This document shows, piece by piece, positions 4,744 to 17,602 of a DNA stretch of 64,000 nucleotides (position 1 is its first letter; each line of letters begins with the position of its first letter). A program made the position numbers and the translations under genes. The notes below the pieces were generated by a model that was given only the letters and a program-made list of their open reading frames with translations, had not been told where the DNA came from and did no database searches. Origin of the DNA: an uncultured delta proteobacterium (GTDB taxonomy: Bacteria; Myxococcota_A; UBA9160; SMWR01); NCBI GenBank assembly GCA_963832165.1, contig CAWHTE010000001.1:128001-192000 (forward strand), given 5' to 3'.

Positions 4744-6483
4744 CTACGCGAGTCCGAGCTCCGCGAGCACGGCCATCTGCGCCAGGTCGCCGTCGATCAC
4801 GAGGCGCCGCGTGTTGAAGGCCTCCGCGCCCGAGAGATCTCCGTTCGCGATCTGCAGATAGCTCGCCGCATCGGCACGGATCGTCACCGTGGCATCGGCG
4901 CGCTCGGCGGGCGCGGTGTCGATCGTGAGCGCGCCGTCGCGCACCGCGAGGATCCACGTGCCGCCGTGCTCTCCCGTGAGCGCGTACTGCACCACGAGCT
5001 CGACGCCCGCGGCCTTCGCGGGATCGAAGCGGCTCGCCATCGCGGCGAACAGCTGCTCGACGGAGTCGACGCGGCGGGCCGCGAGCCGCGCGGCGCGCGC
5101 CCGCTCGCGCGCGAGCACGTCGGCTTCCATCGCCGCGATCGACTCGGCGAGGATCGCCGCGATCTGGTCCGCGCACGCGCGATCGATCGTGAGCGGAGGC
5201 GCGAGTCCCACCACCTCCGTCCCCATCGCGCGCACGTAGAGCCCGCGCTGCCAGGCTTCCGCTTCCACGCGTGCACAGGCCGAGTGCGGCTTCGAGAAGC
5301 CGCGCCGCGTCGCCTTGTCGGCGACGAGCTCGATGCCGATCATGAGCCCCACGCCGCGGATATCGCCCACGGAATCGAAGCCGCCGAGCATCTCGCGCAA
5401 GCGCTCGATCAGATAGGCGCCCACGTCGGCTGCGTTCTCGGCCAGGCGTTCGCGTTCGAGGATCTCGATGTTGGCGAGGGCCGCGGCGCAGCACGTGGGA
5501 TGGCCCATGTACGTGAAGCCGTGGCTGATCGGCATCTGGTTCGGCAGCTTCGCGCTGATCGTCTGGTAGATCTCCTCGGAGACCACCGACGCGCCGAGCG
5601 GCAGATAGCCGCTCGTGATCCCCTTCGCGAGCGTCACGACGTCGGGCCGCACGCGATAGCGCTCGAAGCCGAACATCGTTCCCGTGCGCCCGAAGCCCGT
5701 CACGACCTCGTCGAGGATCAACAGGATCCCGTGGCGGTCGCAGATCTCGCGGATGCGCTCGAAGTAGTCGTCGGGCGGGGGGATGATGCCGCCTGCGCCG
5801 TACACGGGCTCGGCGATGAACGCCGCGATCGTCTCGGCGCCGTCGCGCTCGATCAGGCGCTCGAGCTCGTCGGCGCACGCGAGCCGGCAGCTCGGATAGG
5901 TCTTGCCGAGCTCGCACTTGAAGCAGTAGGGTGCCGCGACGTGCGCGAAGCCGGGCGCCTCGGGTCCGAAGTTCCAGCGCAGCGGCATGATGCCCGTGGC
6001 GGTCATCGTCGCGATCGTGAGTCCGTGATAGGCATGGTGGCGAGCCACGATCGTCGTGCGCCGCTCCTCGCCGCGCAGCGCCCAGTAGAGGCGCACGAGC
6101 TTGATCGACGTCTCGTTGGCCTCCGACCCGCCCGACGAGAACATCACGTGCGAGAGGCCGTACTCGCGCGGGAACATCGAGCACAGCTTCTCGGCGAGCT
6201 CGATCGCGCGCGGGTGGGACTGGCCGTGGAAGGTCGTGAAGTACTCGAGCGTCTCCATCTGCTCGCGCACGGCCGCGATGATCTCGGGGCGCCCGTGCCC
6301 GACCGCCACGCACCAGAGCCCGGAGAACCCGTCGATCAGGCGGTGTCCGCGATCGTCGGTGATCCACCAGCCGTCGCCTTCGACGATCACGCGCGCGCCG
6401 TCGCTCTCCATCTCGCGTGGCGGCGTGAGCGGGTGGATCAGATGGGCGGCGTCGCGCTCGGCGAGCGGGGTCCGCCCGGGCAT
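4744..6483 (-). CDS. Class III PLP aminotransferase with C-terminal SCP2 (sterol carrier) domain
   Basis: GLWC..GHG, SGGSEANE, DEVVTGFGRTG and the PLP lysine in TLAKG. The C-terminal ~105 aa (FDPAKAAG...GGTW...ADATVTI...AF...L.IDGD) is SCP2-like. Confidence 0.9.
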   Translation of the reverse strand: MPGRTPLAERDAAHLIHPLTPPREMESDGARVIVEGDGWWITDDRGHRLIDGFSGLWCVAVGHGRPEIIAAVREQMETLEYFTTFHGQSHPRAIELAEKLCSMFPREYGLSHVMFSSGGSEANETSIKLVRLYWALRGEERRTTIVARHHAYHGLTIATMTATGIMPLRWNFGPEAPGFAHVAAPYCFKCELGKTYPSCRLACADELERLIERDGAETIAAFIAEPVYGAGGIIPPPDDYFERIREICDRHGILLILDEVVTGFGRTGTMFGFERYRVRPDVVTLAKGITSGYLPLGASVVSEEIYQTISAKLPNQMPISHGFTYMGHPTCCAAALANIEILERERLAENAADVGAYLIERLREMLGGFDSVGDIRGVGLMIGIELVADKATRRGFSKPHSACARVEAEAWQRGLYVRAMGTEVVGLAPPLTIDRACADQIAAILAESIAAMEADVLARERARAARLAARRVDSVEQLFAAMASRFDPAKAAGVELVVQYALTGEHGGTWILAVRDGALTIDTAPAERADATVTIRADAASYLQIANGDLSGAEAFNTRRLVIDGDLAQMAVLAELGLA

Positions 6484-6486
6484 CGG

Positions 6487-7302
6487 CTAGCGCGCACCGC
6501 GCTTCGCGCGCGCGTCGATCGTGTTGCGCTTCACCGCGCGCCGCATGAACTCGGGTGCGACCGCCTGGATCACGTAGGCGGGCGAGATCCCGCCCGGGTA
6601 GGTGATCTCGTGCTTGCCCTTCGCAAGCGCATCCATCGTCGCGTCGACGAGCGCTTCCACCTCCACCATGCCGCGCTTCGCGGCCGGCGGCATGCGCGAC
6701 AGCGCCTCCTCGTCGAAGAACGGCGTGCGGATCACGCCCGGGCACACCGTGAGCACGTGCACGCCCGCGTCCTCGACCTCGAGCGAGAGCGAGGCGGCCA
6801 GTCCGACCATCGCGAACTTCGAGGCCGCGTAGGCCGACTCCTCGGGAGGTGCGATCTTGCCCGCGACCGACGCGACGAACACGAGCCAGCCGCGCCGCTG
6901 CTCCACCATCGCAGGCAAGAGCGCCTTCGTGAAGTAGAGCGTTCCGAAGTAGTTCACGCGCATCACGCGTTCCATGTCCTCGACCGACCACTCGAGGAAG
7001 GTGCGGTGATGTCCGTAGCCCGCATTGTTCACGAGCATGTCGATGCCGCCCCAGACCTCGCGCGCGCGCGCCGCCGTGGCCGCGACCTCCGCCGCGCTGG
7101 ACACGTCGCACGGCAGCACCACGGCCTCGCTTCCGCCGGAGCGGATCTCGGCCGCGAGCTTCTCGAGCTCCTCCGCGCGGCGCGCCACGAGCGCCACGCG
7201 CGCGCCCTCGCGCGCGAGCCGCAGCGCGAGCGTGCGGCCGATGCCGCTCGAGGCGCCCGTCACGAGCGCGCGCAGCCCCTGGTAGGAGCGCAGCCGCGTC
7301 AT
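6487..7302 (-). CDS. Short-chain dehydrogenase/reductase
   Basis: TGASSGIG, NNAG, S...YAASK; ATG overlaps the TetR stop. Confidence 0.92.
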   Translation of the reverse strand: MTRLRSYQGLRALVTGASSGIGRTLALRLAREGARVALVARRAEELEKLAAEIRSGGSEAVVLPCDVSSAAEVAATAARAREVWGGIDMLVNNAGYGHHRTFLEWSVEDMERVMRVNYFGTLYFTKALLPAMVEQRRGWLVFVASVAGKIAPPEESAYAASKFAMVGLAASLSLEVEDAGVHVLTVCPGVIRTPFFDEEALSRMPPAAKRGMVEVEALVDATMDALAKGKHEITYPGGISPAYVIQAVAPEFMRRAVKRNTIDARAKRGAR

Positions 7303-7940
7303 CGCGCGTTCTCGACGAGCGCGAGGATCACCGACTGCAGGTGCTGCTTGGTGCGCTCGCGGATGCGCGGGTCGGAGAGGTCCTTTCCGAACAGCTTCTT
7401 GTAGTGCGCAGTCGACAGGATGTGGTGGTGCAAGATTCCCTCCACGGTGATCAGCAGCAGGCCCAGATCGTGTTTGGGGGCGCCGAGCCTCTGGCCCGAG
7501 AGCGACTCGTCGATGAACTGCACCCAGCTCTGCTCCTTCAGCGAGACGCCCTTCGCGAGGCCTTCGCCGAGTGTTGCGCGTACCGAGAGCGCCACCCAGC
7601 CGCGCTTCTCGAGAAAGAAATCGAACAGCTCCTCGACGACCTTCTCGACCGTCGTCGCGAGATCGCCCTGGCCCGCGACCACCGCGCCGACGCGCTTGAG
7701 GATCTCGTCGTCCCAGCGCGAGAGCACCGCCTGGTACAGGCCCGGCTTCGAGCCGAAGTGGTGCTGGATCGTGAACGGGCGCACGCCGCATGCGCGCGAG
7801 AGCTCGCGCACCGACACGCCGCGGTAGCCGCGGTTCGCGAACAGGCGCTCGGCGCGGTCGAGGATCCGGGTGCGCGTGCGCTCGGCCTCCTCCTGCGAGC
7901 GCCGGCCGGCCGGGCGCGACTGGACTTTCTTATTGGCCAT
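7299..7940 (-). CDS. TetR/AcrR family transcriptional regulator
   Basis: N-terminal HTH: RILDRAERLFANRGYRGVSVRELSRACGV...HHFGSK. Confidence 0.9.
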   Translation of the reverse strand: MANKKVQSRPAGRRSQEEAERTRTRILDRAERLFANRGYRGVSVRELSRACGVRPFTIQHHFGSKPGLYQAVLSRWDDEILKRVGAVVAGQGDLATTVEKVVEELFDFFLEKRGWVALSVRATLGEGLAKGVSLKEQSWVQFIDESLSGQRLGAPKHDLGLLLITVEGILHHHILSTAHYKKLFGKDLSDPRIRERTKQHLQSVILALVENAR

Positions 7941-7975
7941 GTGTACAGTAAAACACCGCGCGCGCTCCGAGTCAA
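7941..7975 (-). promoter_or_regulatory. Candidate leaderless promoter for tetR (TTGACT-17 bp-TTTACT-6 nt-ATG)
   Basis: -35 at 7975-7970, -10 at 7952-7947, ATG at 7940 with no room for an RBS; lies in the short divergent intergenic region. Confidence 0.5.
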
Positions 7976-8023
7976 CGCGCGCGTTCCCCGAAACCCCCCG
8001 GAATCCAGGCATCTGGAGGTCGC

Positions 8024-9271
8024 ATGCGCGCGCTCGTGATCGGCAGCGAGATGGCGCGGCTCATCGTCACCCGGTTGCTCGCCGCGCTCTCGCCGCGCGC
8101 GTTCGTGGGCCCGACCTCGACGCTGCGGCTGTGCGAAATCCCCGAGCCCACGCTGCCGGCACCCGATTGGGCGGTCGCGCGCACGCGCCTGTGCGGTCTG
8201 TGCGGCAGCGACTACAAGCAGGTGTTCATGAACGGGGCGTTCGACAGCCCGATGACCGCGATGATCTCGTGGCCGCAGGTGCTCGGGCACGAAGTGGTCG
8301 GCGTGATCGACGAGGTCGGACCCGCAGCGACGCGCCGCCGGATCGGCGAGCGCGTGGTGTTGAACCCGTGGCTGTCGTGCGAGACGCGCGGCCTGCCGCT
8401 GTGCGACTGGTGCGAGGAGGGCGACCTCGCGCAGTGCCTGAACTTCGCGCGCGGCAGCGCGGCACCCGGCATCCACACCGGCAACAGCTCGACCGCGACG
8501 GGCGGATTCGCGCAGCGCGTGCCCGCGCACGAATCGCAGTGGATCCCGATTCCCGACGAGATCAGCGACGACGCGGCCGTGCTCGCCGACCCGTTCTCGG
8601 TCTCGCTGCACGCGATCCTGCGCACGCCGCCGCCGCCGGGCGGCACCGCGCTCGTGTACGGTGCCGGCACGCTGGGTCTGTTCGCGATCGCGATCCTGCG
8701 CCTGCTCCACCCGCACGTACGCGTGCTCGCGGTGGCGCGCTTCGATCACCAGGCGCAGCTCGCGGAGAAGTTCGGTGCGGATCGCGTGTTTTCTTACCGG
8801 CCGGCGCTCGGGATCATCGAGGCCGTCGCGGAGGCGTGCGGCGCCGAGATCGCGCGCCCCTGGAGAGGGCTCCCGATGCTTCTCGGCGGTGCCGACGTGG
8901 TGTACGACACCGTGTCGTCGCCCGAGACTCTCGAGGTCGGACTCCGGATCGCGAACATCCGCGGGAGCATCGTGGCGCTCGGCGTCGAGCCGCCGCGCCG
9001 CTTCGAGTGGACGCCGCTCTACTTCAAGGAGATCTCGATCGTCGGATCGAACGGCTTCGGGATCGAGGAGTACGACGGGCGCCGGCAACACGCGATCGAG
9101 TGGTACTTCGAGTTCCTGCGCACGAAGCAGATCGATCTGACTCCGATCATCACGCACCGCTTCCCGCTCGCGGGCTACCGCGATGCCTTCATGACCTGTT
9201 ATTCGCAAGGCGACAACGGCGCCGTGAAGGTGCTGTTCGACCGCTTCACCGACGAGGAGACTTTGCGATGA
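8024..9271 (+). CDS. Zinc-dependent dehydrogenase (MDR, polyol/threonine DH-like)
   Basis: CGLCGSD, GHE, structural Zn cysteines (C..RG...CDWC...C) and GAGTLG. Confidence 0.9.
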   Translation: MRALVIGSEMARLIVTRLLAALSPRAFVGPTSTLRLCEIPEPTLPAPDWAVARTRLCGLCGSDYKQVFMNGAFDSPMTAMISWPQVLGHEVVGVIDEVGPAATRRRIGERVVLNPWLSCETRGLPLCDWCEEGDLAQCLNFARGSAAPGIHTGNSSTATGGFAQRVPAHESQWIPIPDEISDDAAVLADPFSVSLHAILRTPPPPGGTALVYGAGTLGLFAIAILRLLHPHVRVLAVARFDHQAQLAEKFGADRVFSYRPALGIIEAVAEACGAEIARPWRGLPMLLGGADVVYDTVSSPETLEVGLRIANIRGSIVALGVEPPRRFEWTPLYFKEISIVGSNGFGIEEYDGRRQHAIEWYFEFLRTKQIDLTPIITHRFPLAGYRDAFMTCYSQGDNGAVKVLFDRFTDEETLR

Positions 9272-12200
9272 GCCGCGTGCTCTTGGGAATCGATCTCGGA
9301 GGCGGCAGCGTCCACTGCACGCTGCTGGACGCCGACACGGGCGCGCGCTTCGAGGCCGCGCTCGCGATCACGAGCCAGTCGGCGGAAGGCACGAGCGGCC
9401 TCGGCTACGAGATCGCCACCGATGAGCTCTGGGCGCGCGTGGGCGAGACCACGCGCGCGGTGCTCGCTTGCGCGGGCGCCACGGGCGATGCCGTCGCGGG
9501 CGTGTCGGTGACAGCGATGCGCTTCACGTCGGTGGTGCTCGACGCGGCCGGCGAGGTGCTGTTCGCGGTGCCCAACCGCGATGCGCGCTCGGTCGGCGAG
9601 AGCATGCGGATCGCGGCCGAGCGCGGCCAGGCGGTGCTCGCGACCAGCGGCATGTGGCCGCTGCCGATCCACGCTGCGCCGCGCCTGTCGTGGCTGCGCA
9701 GCGCGCGGCCTGACGTGTTCGGGCGCGCGGTTACGCTGCTCTCGCTCTCGGACTGGCTGAACTTCCGGCTCTGCGGACGGCGGATCACCGACGAGACACA
9801 GGCGGGCTGCACGGGCCTGTTCGATCTGCGCAAACGCGAGTGGAACGCGGAGCTGATCGACGCGTTCGGGCTGCCGCGCGCGATCTTCCCCGAGGTGCGA
9901 CCGTCGGGCGAGCGGATCGGCGAGCTCGACGCGCGCGCCGCGCGCGAGCTCGGGCTCGCACCCGGCACGCCCGTGGCGCTCGGCGGCGGCGACACGCGCT
10001 GCGGACTGCTCGGCGCGGGCGCGATCGCCGACGGCGACGTGGGCCTGATTGCGGGAACCACCGCTCCGCTCGAGCTCGTGACCGACGAGCCCGTGATCGA
10101 CGGCGAGGGACGGCTGCGCAGCGGGCTTCACGCGGTGCCGGGGCGTTATGTGCTCGAGGCGAACGTGGGACCGGTCGGCGAGGGCCTGGCCTGGCTCGCG
10201 CGCCTGCTCCACCCGGACGACGCGCGGCCCGACGACCGCTTTGCGGCCGAGGCTTCGACCGCGGCGATCGGCTCGGCCGCGATGCTCGCGAACGTGGGCG
10301 CACTCGTGGCGAACGATCGCCAGCCCGCTTTCCCCGTCGGCATGTACTCGCTCTCCCACATGACGGGCACGCAGGGGCGCAGTGCGCGCGCGAGCCTCGC
10401 GCGCTCCGCGCTCGAGGGAGTGGCGTGTGCGGTGCGCGCGAACCTCGAGCAGCTCACGCGCGTCACGGGGCGCGATCTGCGCCGCATTCATCTCGCGGGC
10501 GGGCTCTCGCGCAGCGCGCTGTTCGCGCGGATCCTCGCGGGCATCACGCGCGCCGAGGTGGTGCGCGCGGCGGCGCCCGAGGCGACCGGCCTCGGCGCTG
10601 CGCTGTGCGCGGGCATCGGCGCGGGCGTGTTCGCGGACGCGCTCGACGCGGTGAGCCACGGCGTGCGCGCAGCGGAGACCTCCGCGCCGCAGGCGGCCGA
10701 GGCCGACGCGTACGAGCGGCTCTACGAGAGCTGGAGCGAGCTGCGCGACGCGGCCGAGCAGACCACGGCGCCGATCGCGATGCGCCACACGGTTCCGGCC
10801 GCGCTCGCCGCCTCGCAGCGCAACGGGCGGCGCGCCAAGGCCGCGCATCGGCCCAAGGCGCTCGTCACCGCGGCGTTCGACGACGCGTCGATCGAGCGGC
10901 TGCGCGGCTTCGCCGACGTCGAATACGCGAGCTTCCGCGACCGCATGCAGCTGCTCACGGGCGCGAGCCTGGTCTCGGCGCTCGCCGACTGCGACGTGCT
11001 GGTCACCGAGGTCGACGTCGTCGACGCGAAGGCGCTCGAAAAGCTTCCGAACCTGCGCGTGGTGGCGGCCTGCCGCGGCGACGCCGTGAACGTGGACGTG
11101 GCCGCGTGCAGCGCGTTCGGGATCCCGGTGCTGTTCGCGCCGGGCCGCAACGCCGACGCGGTGGCCGACCTCACCGTCGCGTTCCTGCTCAACCTCGCGC
11201 GGCGGCTGCCCGCGGCCACGAAGTTCCTCGCCGACCCGGCGGTGACGGCCGGCAATCTCGCGGCGATGGGCAAGGCGTTCCGGGGCCTGCAGGGCTACGA
11301 GCTCTGGTCGAAGACGGTGGGTCTGGTCGGACTCGGCGCGGTCGGGCGCGGCGTGGCGCGCCGGCTCTCGGGCTTCGGCGTGCGCCTGCTGGTCGCCGAT
11401 CCGTACGTCTCCGCGGAGGAGGCCGCGCTCGCGGGCGCCGAGAAGGTCGAGCAGGGCGAGCTCCTGCGCACGAGCGACTTCGTGAGCCTGCACGCGGCCG
11501 TCACCGACGCGACGCGCGGGCTGCTCGGCCCCGCGCAGTTCGCCGCGATGAAGCCCGGCGCGTATCTGATCAACACCGCACGCGCGGCGCTGGTCGACGA
11601 GGCCGCGCTGCTCGCGGCGCTCGACAGCGGGCACCTCGCGGGCGCTGCGCTCGACACGTTCGCGGTCGAGCCGCCCGGCGCCGATCACCCGCTCGTGCGC
11701 CACGGCAGCGTGATCCACACGCCGCACATCGGCGGCAACACGAACGAGGTCGCTGCGCACCAGGGCCGGAGTATCTCCGATGCGCTCGAGCAGCTCGTGC
11801 GCGGTGAGGCGCCGCGCTGTCTGCTCAATCCCGAGGCGCTCGCGGGCTTCAGCTGGACGGGTTCGCGCCGCGTGCCGACGGCCGACGAGCTCACCGCGCT
11901 CGCCAATCGCGCGGGCCCGGCCGTCACCGACCTGCAGCGCGACGCGCAGGCCGAGGCCCAGGAGGAGAAGCTCGAGCCGAGCGCCGCGCCCGCGGAGACG
12001 GTCGCGGCGATGAAGCGGATCCTCGAGACGTTCACGGCCGCGATGGCGCAGGACGAGCGCGTGCACGCGTTCAGCGCCGACAAGGACGTCGCGCTCTACT
12101 TCGTGCTGCCCGACATCGGCCTCGACCTCCACATCGCGCTGCGCGAGGGACGGGTCTCGGGCGGGCTCGGCAAGCCCGAGGGTGGCTCCGTGGTCCAGCT

Positions 12201-13083
12201 GCGCATGCGCGCGGCGATCCTGGACGGGATGTTCACGGGCAAGGTGAACGCGATGGAAGCCGCGATGCAGGGCGAGGTCGCGTTCACGGGCGACGCCGGC
12301 AAGGCGATGGCGATCCAGCAGCTCCAGGGCGACATGCGGCGGCTCTACAGCGCCGCGCGCGAAGAGGTGGGCGATCCGGGCGACCTCGCCGCGATTCCGC
12401 AGCCGGGCGCGGCGCCGGGCGCCGCCGCTGCGGCGAAGCCCGTCGGCTCCGACGACGTCCGCGTCGAGATCGTCTCGATCACCCAGGAGCTCTACGAGAA
12501 CCAGGTGATCACCGCGACGGGCGGCAACGTGTGCGCGCGGATCCCGGGCAAGCCGGACGAGGTCTGGATCACGCCGAGCCAGCTGTTCAAGGGCGATCTG
12601 CGGCCCGAGGTACTCGTGCGGATCGACCTCGATGGCAAGTCGCTCGACGAGGGCTCGCGCTCGGCGTCGTCCGAGTGGAGCATGCACACGCAGATCCTCA
12701 AGAAGAAGCCCGAGGCGAAGGCCGTGATCCACGCCCACGCGCCGTTCGCGACCACGCTCGCGAACACGGGGCTGCCGTTCCTGCCGATCAGCACCGAGGC
12801 CGCCTTCTTCGGCGACATCCCGCGCGTGCCGTTCATCATGCCCGGCACCGACGCGCTCGCGGAGGCGGTCTCCGAAGCGATGAAGGACAGCTGGGCCGTG
12901 TTCATGGTGAACCACGGGCTGGTCGTGTGCGGGCGCAGCCTGCGCCGCGCGGCCGACATGGTGGAGATCGTCGAGCGCTCGGCACAGCTGATCCTGGGCT
13001 GCTATGCGGTGGGCAAGGAGCCGCCGGTGCTGCCCGAGAAGACGGTCGCGATGCTGCGCAAGATGGGCGATCTGGTCGCGTAG
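9268..13083 (+). CDS. Four-domain fusion: FGGY carbohydrate kinase - D-2-hydroxyacid dehydrogenase - SCP2 - class II aldolase (1271 aa)
   Basis: One uninterrupted frame from the ATG overlapping the upstream stop. FGGY: GIDLGGGS, GGGD, AGG.SRS. Dehydrogenase: GLGAVG, INTAR, DTF..EP, TPHIGG. SCP2: GKVNAMEAAMQGEVAFTGD. Aldolase: GGNV, SSEW.MH, HAH, NHG. Confidence 0.88.
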   Translation: MSRVLLGIDLGGGSVHCTLLDADTGARFEAALAITSQSAEGTSGLGYEIATDELWARVGETTRAVLACAGATGDAVAGVSVTAMRFTSVVLDAAGEVLFAVPNRDARSVGESMRIAAERGQAVLATSGMWPLPIHAAPRLSWLRSARPDVFGRAVTLLSLSDWLNFRLCGRRITDETQAGCTGLFDLRKREWNAELIDAFGLPRAIFPEVRPSGERIGELDARAARELGLAPGTPVALGGGDTRCGLLGAGAIADGDVGLIAGTTAPLELVTDEPVIDGEGRLRSGLHAVPGRYVLEANVGPVGEGLAWLARLLHPDDARPDDRFAAEASTAAIGSAAMLANVGALVANDRQPAFPVGMYSLSHMTGTQGRSARASLARSALEGVACAVRANLEQLTRVTGRDLRRIHLAGGLSRSALFARILAGITRAEVVRAAAPEATGLGAALCAGIGAGVFADALDAVSHGVRAAETSAPQAAEADAYERLYESWSELRDAAEQTTAPIAMRHTVPAALAASQRNGRRAKAAHRPKALVTAAFDDASIERLRGFADVEYASFRDRMQLLTGASLVSALADCDVLVTEVDVVDAKALEKLPNLRVVAACRGDAVNVDVAACSAFGIPVLFAPGRNADAVADLTVAFLLNLARRLPAATKFLADPAVTAGNLAAMGKAFRGLQGYELWSKTVGLVGLGAVGRGVARRLSGFGVRLLVADPYVSAEEAALAGAEKVEQGELLRTSDFVSLHAAVTDATRGLLGPAQFAAMKPGAYLINTARAALVDEAALLAALDSGHLAGAALDTFAVEPPGADHPLVRHGSVIHTPHIGGNTNEVAAHQGRSISDALEQLVRGEAPRCLLNPEALAGFSWTGSRRVPTADELTALANRAGPAVTDLQRDAQAEAQEEKLEPSAAPAETVAAMKRILETFTAAMAQDERVHAFSADKDVALYFVLPDIGLDLHIALREGRVSGGLGKPEGGSVVQLRMRAAILDGMFTGKVNAMEAAMQGEVAFTGDAGKAMAIQQLQGDMRRLYSAAREEVGDPGDLAAIPQPGAAPGAAAAAKPVGSDDVRVEIVSITQELYENQVITATGGNVCARIPGKPDEVWITPSQLFKGDLRPEVLVRIDLDGKSLDEGSRSASSEWSMHTQILKKKPEAKAVIHAHAPFATTLANTGLPFLPISTEAAFFGDIPRVPFIMPGTDALAEAVSEAMKDSWAVFMVNHGLVVCGRSLRRAADMVEIVERSAQLILGCYAVGKEPPVLPEKTVAMLRKMGDLVA

Positions 13084-13084
13084 T

Positions 13085-13705
13085 CTACGCCGAGTCGACT
13101 CTCGCCCGGAGCGCCGTCCGTTCCGCCGCGGTGACCACGCGCGGCGCGCACACCAGCGCGCCGGTCGCGTCGAAGAACGGCCCGCGGCGGTGATCGCCGC
13201 GCAGCCGCGCGGCGAGAGCGATCCAGAAGAGCCGGAGGATCACCGACGCAGGAAAGCGGTCGTGCGCATCCAGCTGCTCGCGATGCTTCGCGAAGCGGGC
13301 GTGACCGCGGGTGCGGATCGGTCCGAGCACCTGCTCGCGCGCGCTCTCGGGCGCATCGATGCAGCTGTGGATCAGGCCCACGAACGGCACCTGCCGCGAG
13401 GCGAGCGTATTGCCGATCGGGGTGCGGCAGCACGCCGCGTACCAGCGCACGAGGCCGCCGGGTGCGAGGCGCATGCAGGCCAGGCGATCGGCGCCCGCGC
13501 TGATCTCGAGATGGGCGGGAGACATCTGGAAGATCTCGGTGCCGCCGTGTTCGTCGAGCGTCTCCTTCGCGGCGTCGAGGAAGTGCGCGAACGCCTGGCA
13601 GTCGTCGCAGTAGCAGTAGACGCGGTTCCCGAGCTCGCCCGAGACGCCGCGCGCGCTCCCGCGCAGCGCTCCGCAGCTGCATCGGATCGGGAGATCGGCG
13701 GGCAT
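13085..13705 (-). CDS. DUF6151/GFA-like Zn-binding protein
   Basis: CSCG, CYCDDCQAFA and RWYA.CC.TP.GN cysteine pattern. Confidence 0.7.
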   Translation of the reverse strand: MPADLPIRCSCGALRGSARGVSGELGNRVYCYCDDCQAFAHFLDAAKETLDEHGGTEIFQMSPAHLEISAGADRLACMRLAPGGLVRWYAACCRTPIGNTLASRQVPFVGLIHSCIDAPESAREQVLGPIRTRGHARFAKHREQLDAHDRFPASVILRLFWIALAARLRGDHRRGPFFDATGALVCAPRVVTAAERTALRARVDSA

Positions 13706-13723: not shown

Positions 13724-14956
13724 CTAGCGCGCCGGCGCGAGCTCCCAGCGCAGGGGCACGCGCTTGATGCCGCCCACGAACGACGACCGCACGCGGTCGA
13801 CCGGCCCCGCGAGCTCGGCGCGCACGAGTCGCGTGCGCAGCTCCTCGAACACGGCGCGGATCTCGAGCCGCGCGAGATGGGCACCCAGGCACACGTGCTC
13901 GCCGCGCCCGAAGCCGACATGGTCGTTGGGCTGGCGGTCGATCCGGAACACGTCGCCGTCGGGGAAGATCTGCTCGTCGCGGTTCGCCGACGGGTAGAAC
14001 AGGCACAGCGACTGTCCGGCGCGGATCGCCTGGCCGCGCAGCGAGAAATCCTCGGTCGCGGTGCGGCAGAACTGGATCACAGGCGTCGTCCAGCGCACGA
14101 TCTCCTCGATCGCGGGTGTCACGAGCGCCTCGTTCTCCTGGAGCCGCTTCCACTCGCCCGGATTCTCGAGGAACGCGAGCATGCCACCCGTCATCGCGTT
14201 GCGCGTCGTCTCGTTGCCGGCCACCACGAGCAGGAAGAGGTAGGACAGCAGCTCGACGGGGGGCAGCGCGCGCCCGTCCACAGAGGCGTTGGCCACCTCG
14301 CTCACGATGTCGTCGTTCGGCTGGCTCCGCCGGCGCTCGGCGAGCTCGTGGAAGTAGGCGAACACCTCGTGGCGCGCGCCGTCGATCGTCTTCTGCGCGT
14401 CGCCATCGCGCTGAAACTCCGGGTCTTCGGGCGCGATGACCTCGTTGGTCCAGCGGAACAAGAGCGGCCAGTCCTCGTCGGGCAGGCCCAGCATCAGCGC
14501 GATCACCGCGATCGTGATCGGCGCGGACACGTCCTTCACGAAGTCGATCTGCTCGCGCTGCGCAGCGGCGTCGAGCACGTCGCGCGTGATCCGGCGCACC
14601 TTCGACTCCCAGCCCTGCGCCGCGCGCGGCGTGAAGCGCTTGCTCGCGACCTGGCGGTACTTCGCGTGGTCGGGCGGGTCCATGTTGAGCAGATGGCGCG
14701 TCTCGCCCTCGGGCGGCGGCGGGACCTTGTTGTCGAACACCGCGAGGCGCGGCGCATTCTGGAGCGTCTTGGGGTGCTTGCCCAGCCAGACGACATCGGC
14801 GTGCTTGGTGACGACCCAGAACGGATCGAAGTTCGGCCGCTCGTACCACAACACCGGCGCGTGCTGGCGCAGGTATGCCCACTCGCGATGCGGATAGCCG
14901 TGCTGCTCGTAGTGCTCGGGGTTCATCACGTCGATCGTCGCGAGATCGAAGCTCAT
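13724..14956 (-). CDS. Cytochrome P450 (resembles CYP125/CYP142-type lipid/steroid oxidases)
   Basis: MDPPDH..YR, VAGNETTRN, EEIVRW and FGRGEHVCLG. Confidence 0.93.
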   Translation of the reverse strand: MSFDLATIDVMNPEHYEQHGYPHREWAYLRQHAPVLWYERPNFDPFWVVTKHADVVWLGKHPKTLQNAPRLAVFDNKVPPPPEGETRHLLNMDPPDHAKYRQVASKRFTPRAAQGWESKVRRITRDVLDAAAQREQIDFVKDVSAPITIAVIALMLGLPDEDWPLLFRWTNEVIAPEDPEFQRDGDAQKTIDGARHEVFAYFHELAERRRSQPNDDIVSEVANASVDGRALPPVELLSYLFLLVVAGNETTRNAMTGGMLAFLENPGEWKRLQENEALVTPAIEEIVRWTTPVIQFCRTATEDFSLRGQAIRAGQSLCLFYPSANRDEQIFPDGDVFRIDRQPNDHVGFGRGEHVCLGAHLARLEIRAVFEELRTRLVRAELAGPVDRVRSSFVGGIKRVPLRWELAPAR

Positions 14957-16251
14957 CGCGAGCCTCCGTTCGCCTTCGTCGCCACCTTCGGGAACGCGCG
15001 CGCGATCGCGAGCAGCCACTCCACGATGCGCACCACGTGCAGCGAGAGCACGGGCTTGCCGCTCGTGCACAGCGCAACCGACAGCGCGCGATCGGGGTCG
15101 GCCCACGAGAAGATGTTCGAGAATCCCAGGTGTCCGAACGCGCTCTCGCTGTCGGGCCCGAACAGCGAGAAGTTGGGGCTGCCGAGCATGAAGCCGAGCC
15201 CGTAGCGGAGCGGGAAGCCGAGCGTGAAGTCGACCTCCCACCACGCGGACTCGCCTGTGGCGTGGCGGATCGTCGCGGGGTCGAGCACGCGCACGCCGTT
15301 CTGCTCGCCGCCGTCGAGCAGGCACTGGTAGAACGCACACAGCTCGCTCGCGGTGGTGACCACGTTCGCGGACGGGATGATCCCGGTGAGGTAGCGCGGA
15401 TCGTTCGCGAGCTCGATCACGTGCTCGATGTCGGCCCCGAGCGCGTTGCGCAGGATCGCCGAGCCGGGCCACGGCACGGGCGGACCCGTCACCGCGTCGC
15501 GCGCAACGAGCGGCAGATCCTCCTTGCCCACGCCGTAGCGCATCCAGCGGTAGCCGAGCGGCTCGATCAGCTCGCGCTCGAGCACGGTGCGGATGTCGGA
15601 CCCCGTGACCCGCCGCACCACCTCGGCGAGCACGAAGCCGCCCGAGACGGCGTGATAGGCGAGCACGCGCCCGGGCCGCGACCGCAGCTCCGCGTCGCAC
15701 ATGATCTCGACCACCTTCTCGGGCTGACCGAGCAGATCGAGGTCCATCGACTCGGGCGGCAGATTCGGGATGCCGGCCTTGTGCGCGAGCAGGTGGCGCA
15801 ACGTGATGCGCTGCTTGCCGTGCTTGGCGAACTCGGGGATGAAATCGCACACGCGGTCTTCGAGGTGCAGCACGCGCTTCTCGTCGAGCTTGTGGATCAC
15901 CATCGCCGTGATCGCCTTGCTCGCCGAGAAGATGTCGAACGGGGTCTCGGTGCTGACCGAGAGCTTCGGCGCGTCGGGCGGGTCCTGCGGCGCGTTACCG
16001 CGCGCGTGGCCGATCGCGCGGTTGAGCACCACGACGCCCTGGCGCCGCACGCACAGCGACAGCGCGGGGTGTACGCCCGTGGCGTAGATCGCCTGCGTCG
16101 CGTCCCACACGCGCTCGACTTCGGCGGCCGCCACGTCCGAGCCGCCGGGATCCTCGGGGCCCACGTCGAGGTTTTCTTCGAGGTCGCGCGGGAGGCGACA
16201 CCGCTTCGTGCCGGGCAGGTTCAGCTGACCGATCCAGTGGAGGGGGTCCAT
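14953..16251 (-). CDS. Serine hydrolase, beta-lactamase family (LipE-like esterase)
   Basis: FSASK (SxxK), LLAHKAG, YHAVSGG, AFGHLG. Confidence 0.87.
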   Translation of the reverse strand: MDPLHWIGQLNLPGTKRCRLPRDLEENLDVGPEDPGGSDVAAAEVERVWDATQAIYATGVHPALSLCVRRQGVVVLNRAIGHARGNAPQDPPDAPKLSVSTETPFDIFSASKAITAMVIHKLDEKRVLHLEDRVCDFIPEFAKHGKQRITLRHLLAHKAGIPNLPPESMDLDLLGQPEKVVEIMCDAELRSRPGRVLAYHAVSGGFVLAEVVRRVTGSDIRTVLERELIEPLGYRWMRYGVGKEDLPLVARDAVTGPPVPWPGSAILRNALGADIEHVIELANDPRYLTGIIPSANVVTTASELCAFYQCLLDGGEQNGVRVLDPATIRHATGESAWWEVDFTLGFPLRYGLGFMLGSPNFSLFGPDSESAFGHLGFSNIFSWADPDRALSVALCTSGKPVLSLHVVRIVEWLLAIARAFPKVATKANGGSR

Positions 16252-16276
16252 GGGGGGATCTCTTTCTGTGGGTTGA

Positions 16277-17602
16277 CTACGACTTTTCATCATCCTCGTT
16301 CACGGCGCCCGCGCCCAGGTAGACGTCGAGACCCGTGATCGAAGCGTTGCGGTAGGTGCGCGCCATCGCGGCTTCACAGTTCGATTGGCCGCGCCAGAAC
16401 GGGAAGCCGCCGAGCCGCGCCACGATCGCGCCGGGCTTGCGCGGGATGCGCACCTCGATCGCCTCGTCGCGGCTGCGCACGGCGCCGCCCCAGAACACCT
16501 CGGGATCCTCCGGGAGCGGCTCGTCGGGAATCACGCGCTCGGGCGGCGGCTCGATCACGGCGATGTTCGGCGCCACGAACGGCTCGCCCTCGTCCCCTTC
16601 GAGCAGCTCGCCGTCGGCTCCGTACGTGGGCTCGGAAGACGATGGCGGCATCGGCGCCCGCGGGATCGCCGCGGGTCCGAGCGCCGCGAGCAGCTCGCTG
16701 CGCTCCATGCCGCGAAGCTGGAAGATCAGGAACGGATCGCGGTCGAACTCCTCGCCGAGCAGGTAGTAGACGGCCGCCACGTGCTTGCATGGGTTCGCGT
16801 TGTCGGGGCACGAGCACGCGGCCTTGAGATCGCCGCTCGCGTTGGGGAAGAGCGACAGGCGCTGCTCTTCGAACACGCTCTCGATGCTTTCGGGGATGGT
16901 CCCCATGCCGAGTTCGACGGCGATGTCGGGGCGCTGCGCGAGCGCGCGCGTGAGCTTCTTCCAATCGGTGCTCGACAGCATCGAGAAGTGCATGCGCACG
17001 AGATACGGTGCGTCGCGCGAGCCCTGAACGTGCGCGGTGACGAAGCCCTTGCCGATCTCGATGTCGACGATGTGGCCCTGGCGCGCGTAGTTGCGGCCGC
17101 GTCCGAGCCGACGCCCGACCGCGAACCGCTCGAGCACTTCCACCCAGCGCCGCGCCCACCAGTTCTCACCGGTGCGCCCGCGCCGCGGGCGTCCGCGTTG
17201 ATTGTTGTTGCGCTGCGGTCGCCCTTGTCCGCGCCCGCGCCGGTTCCGGCCGCCGCTCTTGCCGCGCTGCTGGCCCTGCCAGCCGCCGCCGCCATTCCCG
17301 CCGCGCTGCGCACCATCGCCGTCGTCGCCGTCGTCGTGGAACACCTCGAGGTCGCGGAACAGCTCGGGCGGCCTCGCCGCGACGTCTGCGCCGCTCGCGC
17401 CCTCCACGCCCGGCGCGGCCGTCGGCGCGGCGTTCCAGGATCCGTTTCCGCCCGCGCCGCCGTTCTGCGCGTTCGGATCGACCGGGCCGCTCGGACCGCC
17501 GGGACCGCGCCCGCCGCGCCGGCGCCGCGGCCGTCGCCGCCGGCGGCGGGGTTCTCCGCCGCCTCCGCCGACTTGTCCGCCGCCCGGGCCTTCTTCGCTC
17601 AT
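16277..17602 (-). CDS. SWIM zinc-finger protein with long Gly/Arg-rich N-terminal extension
   Basis: WWARRW, RLGRGRNYARQG, CSCPD...PCKH (SWIM), FDRDPF.IF.LRG; start 2 nt after the helicase stop. Confidence 0.85.
   Translation of the reverse strand: MSEEGPGGGQVGGGGGEPRRRRRRPRRRRGGRGPGGPSGPVDPNAQNGGAGGNGSWNAAPTAAPGVEGASGADVAARPPELFRDLEVFHDDGDDGDGAQRGGNGGGGWQGQQRGKSGGRNRRGRGQGRPQRNNNQRGRPRRGRTGENWWARRWVEVLERFAVGRRLGRGRNYARQGHIVDIEIGKGFVTAHVQGSRDAPYLVRMHFSMLSSTDWKKLTRALAQRPDIAVELGMGTIPESIESVFEEQRLSLFPNASGDLKAACSCPDNANPCKHVAAVYYLLGEEFDRDPFLIFQLRGMERSELLAALGPAAIPRAPMPPSSSEPTYGADGELLEGDEGEPFVAPNIAVIEPPPERVIPDEPLPEDPEVFWGGAVRSRDEAIEVRIPRKPGAIVARLGGFPFWRGQSNCEAAMARTYRNASITGLDVYLGAGAVNEDDEKS

Follow-up and report, generated by a model that had tools for sequence, protein, structure and literature searches.

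A single-chain kinase–dehydrogenase–SCP2–aldolase family that may act on the terminal polyols of hydrophobic molecules

Systematic bioinformatics analysis was carried out on a 64,000-nucleotide stretch of DNA from an uncultured delta proteobacterium (contig CAWHTE010000001.1, positions 128,001 to 192,000; hereafter the window), with emphasis on one open reading frame (ORF), P0001, which joins an FGGY kinase, a D-2-hydroxyacid dehydrogenase, an SCP2 domain and a class II aldolase in a single polypeptide (Table 1). As read from its sequence and that of its relatives, the gene encodes, with a probability of roughly one half, a genuine multifunctional catabolic enzyme whose target is the polyol at the end of a hydrophobic molecule, probably a polycyclic one resembling a hopanoid or steroid. 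The original prediction, that the protein phosphorylates, oxidises or reduces and then cleaves a sugar-like head attached to a hydrophobic tail, fits the invariant active sites, the conserved SCP2 core and the lipid- and steroid-type genes found beside the fusion; beyond the identity of the domains, this activity is what we infer.

Domain architecture and catalytic residues

The reading frame at window:9268-13083(+) translates through 1271 codons with zero stops, in agreement with the single continuous ORF described originally, and six Pfam models exceed their gathering scores in the protein. All four domain kinds that had been named are thereby recovered above the Pfam cut-offs, with boundaries that were correct to about 30 nt. 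None of the domains reaches an NCBIfam equivalog cut-off (XylB, one of the top matches, scores 211 bits against 380), which places them in the named superfamilies and not in any named enzyme family.

The N-terminal kinase is recognised by FGGY_N (PF00370, residues 5–249; 140.3 bits, cut-off 28.8) and FGGY_C (PF02782, residues 260–451; 75.6 bits, cut-off 27). FGGY kinases carry an N-terminal GxDxG phosphate loop and a catalytic Asp in a GGxD motif; both are present here (D9, G11, G12 and D242) and, together with T264 and T265, are invariant in all 40 sequences of an alignment of homologues sharing 50–86% identity, on which all statements of invariance below are based. The best match among solved structures is LsrK (5ya0, E 4.7e-50), and LsrK is also the best NCBIfam match (NF008187), at 231.5 bits and far under the cut-off of 528.

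The second domain matches 2-Hacid_dh (PF00389, residues 536–850; 51.7 bits, cut-off 24.6) and, over its NAD domain, 2-Hacid_dh_C (PF02826, residues 638–822; 175.5 bits, cut-off 25.1). Its best matches in the PDB are human and mycobacterial phosphoglycerate dehydrogenase (PGDH), glyoxylate reductase and McyI (E about 1e-44 to 1e-47), with the PGDHs in the lead at about 4e-47, and the PGDH equivalog TIGR01327 scores 209.3 bits, below its cut-off of 454. Like SerA/PHGDH, glyoxylate reductase and McyI, the fusion keeps the Arg-Glu-His triad and the NAD site: the catalytic R772, E801 and H820, as well as D711 and the G685, G688 and G690 of the GxGxxG loop, are invariant, and so are R603, R627 and N628 in the substrate loops. 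Unlike in SerA/PHGDH, the substrate-loop Arg is shifted, R627 is an extra invariant Arg, a family-specific loop of about eight residues is inserted at residues 655–676 relative to human PHGDH, and ACT and ASB domains are missing.

The third domain, originally assigned to SCP2, is upheld as such by three kinds of evidence. Residues 945–1019 match Pfam SCP2 (PF02036) at 32.4 bits against a cut-off of 21.3, covering profile positions 26–99 of 101, and a precomputed PF02036 match is present in most relatives. An AlphaFold2 (AF2) model of residues 890–1050, built with a 38-row alignment, shows the helix and strand order of SCP2 with a predicted local distance difference test (pLDDT) of 87.4 and a predicted template modelling score (pTM) of 0.81. 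A Foldseek search with this model gave 41 matches at E <= 0.001; the PDB matches listed are SCP2 domains (rabbit and human SCP2, the SCP2L domain of MFE-2, UbiJ, SCP2s of insects and C-terminal domains of alkylsulfatases) except for ranks 48–50, which are acetyltransferases, all with E > 0.02. Thirteen residues of the domain are invariant in 40/40 sequences (F945, L978, G987, M988, G991, M1000, G1002, F1006, G1008, D1009, K1012, A1013 and M1014), and F945, L978, M988, M1000, F1006 and M1014 are conserved residues of its hydrophobic core.

The C-terminal domain matches Aldolase_II (PF00596, residues 1067–1242; 155.1 bits, cut-off 22.2), and its best PDB match is DrdA (6btd, E 5.8e-26), followed by FucA; the template modelling (TM) scores given by Foldseek are 0.87–0.90 for FucA and DrdA together and 0.87–0.88 for Escherichia coli FucA. 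N1087, T1102, S1134, S1135, E1136, H1155, H1157 and H1216 are invariant in 40/40 sequences and align with the phosphate site, the catalytic Glu (E1136; Glu73 of FucA) and the three metal-binding His of FucA and 6btd, roles that are established for FucA. Both residue sets of the original prediction, the Arg/Glu/His set of the dehydrogenase and the Zn-binding His of the aldolase, are thus present and invariant. The second catalytic residue of E. coli FucA, Tyr113, aligns with Ile1174; the neighbouring Ser1175 is invariant and is followed by Thr and Glu, in the protein studied here as in the consensus of the family. The original comparison with FucK/RhaB and FucA/RhaD is therefore to be amended for the kinase, whose nearest solved structure is LsrK, and holds for the aldolase in its closeness to DrdA and FucA, except for the lack of a Tyr113 equivalent. 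The scores against the equivalogs for FucA (PRK06833; 105.8 bits, cut-off 264) and for the 3-oxo-tetronate 4-phosphate decarboxylase OtnC (NF043034; 94.2 bits, cut-off 250) both stay below cut-off. The available part of the DrdA paper (PMC6079011) gives the residue roles as well, and reports that DrdA cleaves 5-deoxyribulose-1-phosphate, a ketose-1-phosphate with a non-polar C5, into dihydroxyacetone phosphate (DHAP) and acetaldehyde.

The resemblance of the kinase to LsrK opens a different explanation, in which the protein processes a signal like autoinducer 2 (AI-2; 4,5-dihydroxy-2,3-pentanedione, DPD) or a deoxy-ketose: an LsrK-like kinase acting on a 4,5-dihydroxy-2,3-dione would phosphorylate it, the dehydrogenase would reduce it to 5-deoxy-pentulose-1-phosphate, and the aldolase would release DHAP and acetaldehyde. 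That LsrK is the best kinase match, that DrdA cleaves just such a phosphate and that many family members bear the name "autoinducer 2 kinase" from the Joint Genome Institute (JGI) speak for it. The wide gap to the LsrK cut-off speaks against it, as does the lack of any Lsr-type family, both among the window neighbours scanned with Pfam (LsrR, LsrG, LsrF and transporter) and among the recurrent neighbour families of relatives; the SCP2 domain and the lipid-type partners would also be left unexplained, and we consider an AI-2 role very improbable.

Distribution and integrity of the fusion

A homologue search of a 5.8-billion-protein collection scored 8000 candidates, of which 741 were matches. 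The best 120 of these are almost all proteins of 1264–1480 residues with the same Pfam set and 50–86% identity, the exception being a 767-residue piece on a 2.5-kb contig. The full-length relatives carry the source names Halioglobus, Spongiibacteraceae, Mycobacterium kansasii (a cluster of 36 members on 115 contigs), Myxococcota and "Deltaproteobacteria"; genome contigs add Novosphingobium and a metagenome-assembled genome of Haliea, and Chloroflexota names occur on shorter matches. In the phylum of the window, 16 of 201 sampled genomes have a match at E <= 1e-100, and nine of the 15 besides the window's own contain a single full-length match in one frame with no stops. G122, G137 and G102 likewise have one frame open through to the aldolase, as judged by Pfam for the first two and by a full-length match for the third.

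It had been feared that assembly indels had joined separate genes, and certain observations lean that way: indels had already been noted in the assembly, a match to hopene cyclase on another contig falls into two frames, and some relatives are broken, the copy of G188 being interrupted inside the dehydrogenase and that of G128 cut short, with a TGA in its frame. The same single frame is nevertheless shared by more than 100 full-length, independent relatives drawn from several phyla, which excludes a fusion made by assembly, and the inter-domain linkers themselves hold invariant residues, namely P884, D888 and L889 between dehydrogenase and SCP2 and G1035, P1037, G1038 and L1040 ahead of the aldolase. 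An artefact is therefore hardly conceivable, and the fusion is intact in independent genomes. It is the relatives, and not sequencing reads, that settle the matter: in the search of sequencing runs no run contained more than 14% of the sampled words and none of those listed was of RNA, and four soil runs gave only contigs of relatives, of at most 478 nt, two of which span the SCP2–aldolase junction with no frame-breaking indel, a weak observation.

Split forms of the protein also occur. The ESM Atlas confirms the family and holds clusters of 56 and 246 members of kinase–dehydrogenase proteins of about 900 residues; two such proteins, which lack the C-terminal half, lie at L027:8010-10685 and L029:8130-10895, the latter followed by a short-chain dehydrogenase (SDR) and an Ltp-type thiolase. 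Conversely, stand-alone SCP2–aldolase proteins of about 350–370 residues were found on contigs of 8.6–19.8 kb. A HMMER search of the whole library with the SCP2–aldolase part returned 93 representatives at E <= 1e-30, and about 40 of the best 150 representatives at 50% identity cover both domains. In the sequences at hand SCP2 never parts from the aldolase, split forms included. The model of the two domains together has a pLDDT of 90 and a pTM of 0.72, with a low-confidence linker.

Genes neighbouring the fusion in relatives

For the comparison of neighbours, 100 loci were used, comprising the window, four loci on genome contigs (L001–L004), 15 from the phylum sample and 80 from metagenomes, which reduce to 83 groups once the fusion proteins are clustered at 90% identity. 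Excluded from the counts were the short contigs L005–L007 and L008–L015, of which L008 is the window's own copy and the rest are paralogous single-domain matches in the window's genome (G000). Neighbours within 6 kb were clustered by BLASTP and labelled by Pfam; a flank of at least 3 kb was available upstream in 47 groups, downstream in 60 and on at least one side in 64.

The commonest partner is an acyl-CoA synthetase (24 of the 83 groups); encoded on the strand of the fusion, it comes immediately downstream in 10 groups and as the second gene in 5. It is followed in frequency by cytochrome P450 (13, of which 6 have it immediately upstream and co-directional), TetR-type regulators and acyl-CoA dehydrogenases (ACADs; 11 each), and a Rieske oxygenase like KshA (10, of which 5 directly downstream on the same strand and 4 divergent upstream), whose best PDB match is KshA itself at E 1.7e-50. 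SDRs and Ser/Thr kinases come next (9 each, the latter reflecting the synteny of one lineage), then Amidohydrolase_2 (8), Ltp/SCPx-type thiolases accompanied by DUF35 proteins (6), enoyl-CoA hydratase (5), a small VOC protein (5, directly downstream in 4) and RPE65 (3). Operon-like arrangements include TetR–P450–fusion–KshA-like oxygenase–ligase (L065), fusion–VOC–ligase (L074 and L035) and SDR–TetR–DUF35–thiolase–TetR–P450–fusion–ligase–SDR (L040). Taken from sequence, these neighbours point to the breakdown of polycyclic lipids.

The VOC/glyoxalase-fold protein, of about 154 residues, stands between the fusion and the ligase at L074:6045-6557, L035:8985-9449, L034:4161-4625 and L083:13193-13657; it has no NCBIfam match and may, as a guess, be an enzyme of the acyl-CoA epimerase type. 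In a lineage from lake-type metagenomes (L105:2576-9991 and L107:3-7346), two oxygenases of the RPE65 carotenoid-cleavage type, a GH31 glycosidase, a protein like 3-hydroxyisobutyrate dehydrogenase and a CMD-family protein precede the fusion on the same strand, which hints at a glycosylated isoprenoid substrate.

The downstream ligases of four loci (L017, L065, L074 and L040), whose fusions are each about 52–54% identical to that of the window, score 626–692 bits against the steroid-24-oyl-CoA synthetase CasG (NF052580), short of its cut-off of 750, and the next NCBIfam family follows at about 355 bits. In 18 of the 83 groups there is a ligase that shares 45% identity or more with one of the four across 250 residues or more, and 6 groups have only a second ligase type, about 30% identical and mostly upstream. 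According to the available part of PMC8399759, CasG activates bile acids with C5 side chains, and it is the length of the chain and not the nucleus that decides. The likeness places these ligases close to an enzyme whose substrate is a polycyclic acid with a terminal -CH(CH3)CH2CH2COOH chain, and their position just below the cut-off suggests that the acid is probably a related one and not a bile acid. In the phylum sample, a CasG-like ligase was found in 13 of the 16 genomes with the fusion against 29 of the other 185.

The same data have to be set against the strongest alternative, an enzyme for soluble sugars or sugar acids (C4–C6 aldonates such as erythronate and threonate, or pentitols) in which SCP2 is a mere structural spacer and phosphorylation and oxidation of a 2-hydroxy acid are followed by OtnC-like decarboxylation or by aldol cleavage to DHAP. 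The dehydrogenase is compatible with this, since 2-hydroxyacid dehydrogenases (2-HADHs) act on hydroxy acids, and PGDH and the NCBIfam PdxB family on phospho-hydroxy acids; the aldolase scores about as well against OtnC as against FucA, both below cut-off; and some loci, such as that of Halioglobus (L004), have no lipid-type neighbours. The logic of a kinase, a dehydrogenase and a class II "aldolase" that decarboxylates is moreover known for tetronates (PMC12994016, in its available part), although the kinases and the dehydrogenase there belong to other families, Ltn3D being an SDR. A spacer does not account for an SCP2 core conserved like the active sites and never found apart from the aldolase, nor does a soluble substrate account for the recurrent P450, TetR, CasG-like ligase, ACADs, KshA-like oxygenase and Ltp thiolases, and no sugar transporter or sugar-type regulator is among the labelled recurrent neighbour families. 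We regard the soluble-sugar explanation as unlikely. A variant of the tetronate pathway was considered separately and rejected, its logic being analogous and its enzyme families different as far as the available text of PMC12994016 goes.

Proposed reaction and substrate

In the route that we propose for a hydrophobic polyol, the LsrK-like FGGY domain would use ATP to phosphorylate the terminal primary alcohol (CH2OH), and the PGDH-like NAD domain would oxidise the neighbouring secondary alcohol to give a head of the ketose-1-phosphate type, R-CHOH-CHOH-CO-CH2OP. The metal-dependent aldolase, like DrdA and FucA, would then form the enediolate and cleave C3–C4 to DHAP and R-CHO, while the SCP2 domain would hold the greasy tail. 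The aldehyde would be oxidised to the acid, and the acid activated by the CasG-like CoA ligase for removal of the side chain in the manner of beta-oxidation. LsrK phosphorylates a terminal primary alcohol adjoining a secondary one, and PGDH oxidises a CHOH adjoining CH2-O-phosphate. The order of the domains in the protein may thus match a chemically coherent route, and the reverse order, with the dehydrogenase ahead of the kinase, could serve as well. The route needs hydroxyls at C1–C4 and hence a terminal tetrol, and the joining of SCP2 to the aldolase together with the lipid-type partners implies that the rest of the substrate would be large and hydrophobic.

Bacteriohopanetetrol, which ends in a ribitol-derived tetrol at C32–C35, is the best fit to this description, and the family is tentatively, though with less confidence than the general assignment, put forward as the missing enzyme that opens hopanoid catabolism. 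The enzyme would phosphorylate C35, oxidise C34 and cleave C32–C33 to DHAP and the C32 hopanal; the resulting C32 hopanoic acid would be activated by the CasG-like ligase and shortened by ACAD, hydratase and Ltp-type aldolase, and 35-aminobacteriohopanetriol could enter the same route here after the action of an SCP2-aminotransferase and a reductase. The C32 hopanoic acid shares the -CH(CH3)CH2CH2COOH chain with bile acid, the (3R,4R) stereochemistry of FucA-type aldolases fits a D-ribo chain, and C32 hopanoic acids are abundant in sediments. The literature search found no hopanoid-catabolic enzyme described. In the window's genome, matches to hopene cyclase (475 bits) and HpnH (534 bits) lie side by side on another contig, which implies that this organism makes extended hopanoids. 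They were located at G000:C4:294102-295936 (squalene-hopene cyclase) and 296548-297501 (HpnH), the cyclase match extending over two overlapping frames (294102-294845 and 294836-295936) through a possible frameshift or assembly indel.

Several points weigh against the reading as a whole or its hopanoid version. Substrate, order of steps and products are predictions from sequence. The 2-HADH family normally acts on 2-hydroxy acids (or phosphite, or formate), and the oxidation of a polyol phosphate devoid of a carboxylate would be new for it; the aldolase has Ile1174 in place of the second catalytic residue of FucA. In the kinase–dehydrogenase-only genomes G057 and G183 no matching SCP2–aldolase was found, the best aldolase elsewhere in them being 34% identical and free of SCP2. 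As to the neighbours, each single partner is confined to a minority of the 83 groups, many of the contigs are short, gene calling relied on a crude heuristic of ORFs and third-position GC content (GC3), the Halioglobus locus stands apart as already said, and aldehyde dehydrogenase is not a conserved neighbour, being seen only in L003. The co-occurrence with CasG-like ligases is largely a clade effect, since such a ligase is present in 27 of the 33 genomes that belong to the same order. HpnH occurs in 9 and the fusion in 16 of the 201 genomes of the phylum sample, with both in only 3; there is thus no tight coupling, which counts against a biosynthetic or remodelling role and is silent on scavenging.

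Gene neighbourhood in the window

The features of the window are collected in Table 1. The start codon of the fusion overlaps the stop codon of a Zn-dependent alcohol dehydrogenase (Zn-ADH; cgATGAgc), so that the two are probably translationally coupled. The top NCBIfam match of the Zn-ADH is a generic Zn-dependent oxidoreductase, and its matches, all below cut-off, include threonine 3-dehydrogenase, scyllo-inosose 3-dehydrogenase, idonate 5-dehydrogenase and galactitol-1-phosphate 5-dehydrogenase. The annotated starts of this gene and of the divergent TetR regulator are 11 bp apart, and one or both of the true starts are probably further in; the inverted repeat between them is a possible TetR operator. 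The whole arrangement is syntenic in L001 (84% identity), including the esterase, which scores 410 bits against the NCBIfam lipase LipE, below the 750 cut-off. Adjoining the cluster at window:16277-20548 (-) is a large helicase of the SNF2 family that carries DUF3670 and a SWIM zinc finger, probably unrelated, which is also syntenic in L001 and there split in two by the gene call.

Table 1. Coordinates of the four-domain gene, its domains and the neighbouring features in the window.
Feature	Position	Strand	Evidence
Four-domain ORF P0001, 1271 aa	9268..13083	+	Uninterrupted frame; full-length relatives at 50–86% identity
FGGY kinase, residues 5–451	9280..10620	+	Pfam FGGY_N, FGGY_C
D-2-hydroxyacid dehydrogenase, residues 536–850	10873..11817	+	Pfam
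SCP2 domain, residues ~909–1034	11992..12369	+	Pfam, AF2 model, Foldseek
Class II aldolase, residues 1067–1242	12466..12993	+	Pfam
Zn-dependent alcohol dehydrogenase, polyol-dehydrogenase type	8024..9271	+	Pfam ADH_N, ADH_zinc_N
TetR-family regulator, divergent from the ADH–fusion pair	7299..8012	-	Pfam TetR_N; weak FasR/PsrA-like matches
GC-rich inverted repeat, 10-bp arms, between TetR and ADH starts	7957..7983		Terminator scan
Short-chain dehydrogenase (SDR)	6487..7299	-	Pfam adh_short
Class III (omega-type) aminotransferase fused to a second SCP2 domain	4744..6486	-	Pfam Aminotran_3, SCP2
Cytochrome P450	3381..4631	-	Pfam p450
DUF6151/GFA-like protein, convergent with the fusion	13085..13705	-	Pfam DUF6151, 126.7 bits
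Second cytochrome P450	13724..14959	-	Pfam p450
Beta-lactamase-fold esterase, LipE-like	14953..16293	-	Pfam Beta-lactamase

The SCP2-aminotransferase matches NCBIfam omega-aminotransferase families below their cut-offs and occurs near the fusion in 4 of the 83 groups (the window, L001, L033 and L075, the last with a fusion only 48% identical). At L075:18577-20346 (-), a thiamine pyrophosphate (TPP)-dependent enzyme of the acetolactate synthase/2-hydroxyacyl-CoA lyase type and a protein like 3beta-hydroxysteroid dehydrogenase (3beta-HSD)/epimerase lie beside it.

This aminotransferase invites a biosynthetic explanation, in which the kinase and the dehydrogenase would provide DHAP from glycerol or dihydroxyacetone, the aldolase would join it to a lipid aldehyde bound by SCP2, and the SCP2-aminotransferase would make an aminopolyol (sphingoid-like) lipid; by chemical reasoning a 2-amino-1,3,4-triol head would result, and aldolase reactions are reversible (PMC6079011, in its available part). 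On the other side, 79 of the 83 groups lack the aminotransferase, neither an acyl-reductase nor a phosphatase recurs as a conserved partner, and the genes most often found beside the fusion are of catabolic types (CoA ligase, ACADs, hydratase, thiolase and a TetR repressor), which makes synthesis improbable.

Relation to known pathways

The kind of each domain, and the kinase–aldolase logic of FucK/FucA and of the DHAP shunt, are already known. Like the L-fucose/D-arabinose route (FucK, FucA) and RhaB/RhaD, the fusion places an FGGY kinase and a class II aldolase in sequence, and the phosphate-site residues, the catalytic Glu and the three His of FucA are conserved in it. Unlike FucK/FucA, it has Ile for Tyr113, no isomerase, and an extra dehydrogenase and SCP2, and the FucA, fuculokinase and related equivalogs all score far below their cut-offs.

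Brucella erythritol catabolism, in which the FGGY kinase EryA is followed by the dehydrogenase EryB, is a precedent for phosphorylating first and oxidising the neighbouring carbon next; EryB is a flavoprotein, no aldolase or SCP2 takes part and the substrate is soluble. In Mycobacterium tuberculosis, Rv0727c–Rv0729, which we take to be fucA, serA2 and xylB, are presumably neighbours, and the literature listings hold no functional study of them.

The likeness in logic to the 5-deoxyribose disposal of the DHAP shunt (DrdK-DrdI-DrdA), as laid out in the available part of PMC6079011, lies in phosphorylation, a ketose-1-phosphate with a non-polar group beyond C4, and cleavage by a class II aldolase to DHAP and an aldehyde. 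Unlike the shunt (DrdK/MtnK, DrdI/MtnA, DrdA), the fusion has an FGGY kinase and an added SCP2 in a single polypeptide, a dehydrogenase of the 2-hydroxyacid type replaces the isomerase, and only the aldolase is related. Pfam found no isomerase domain in the fusion or in the scanned window neighbours, so the three-part set of the shunt is incomplete here; a dehydrogenase in place of the isomerase suggests an alditol, and not an aldose, as the starting point.

The degradation of C5 side chains of bile acids (CasG/StdA1, ACADs, hydratase and an Ltp2/Sal aldolase with DUF35) uses, in the available part of PMC8399759, the same families that stand beside the fusion in many genomes; that pathway itself has no kinase, 2-HADH or class II aldolase, unlike the fusion loci. 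The 25-hydroxysteroid kinase of Sterolibacterium, considered as a possible FGGY-type enzyme, was ruled out, being a 43-kDa enzyme of a phosphotransferase family in the available part of PMC8449060.

No paper on the function of the four-domain fusion was found in the literature search, which returned no function for the four domains together, in line with the original statement that no characterised protein has all four, and none for the SCP2–aldolase pair. In the 2-HADH classification paper PMC6303947, the words "FGGY", "aldolase" and "fused" are absent, and "fusion" and "kinase" occur only in the title of a Trx-VanH reference and in the name of the ACT domain. In the literature found, the replacement of the isomerase by a dehydrogenase, the obligatory SCP2 and the link to genes of the steroid side-chain type have no described counterpart.

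Conclusion

Overall, soil and marine bacteria of several phyla carry the family. If the proposed route is true, the ketose-1-phosphate kinase–aldolase logic of fucose, rhamnose and 5-deoxyribose would extend to lipid-anchored polyols, with a dehydrogenase in place of the isomerase and a built-in lipid carrier added. Hopanoids are among the most abundant lipids of sediments, and C32 hopanoic acids and nor-hopanones are found in soils and sediments; the enzyme could give a first genetic handle on the bacterial breakdown of hopanoid side chains and an enzymatic origin for these compounds. It could also serve as a biocatalyst for DHAP-dependent C–C bond formation on hydrophobic aldehydes.

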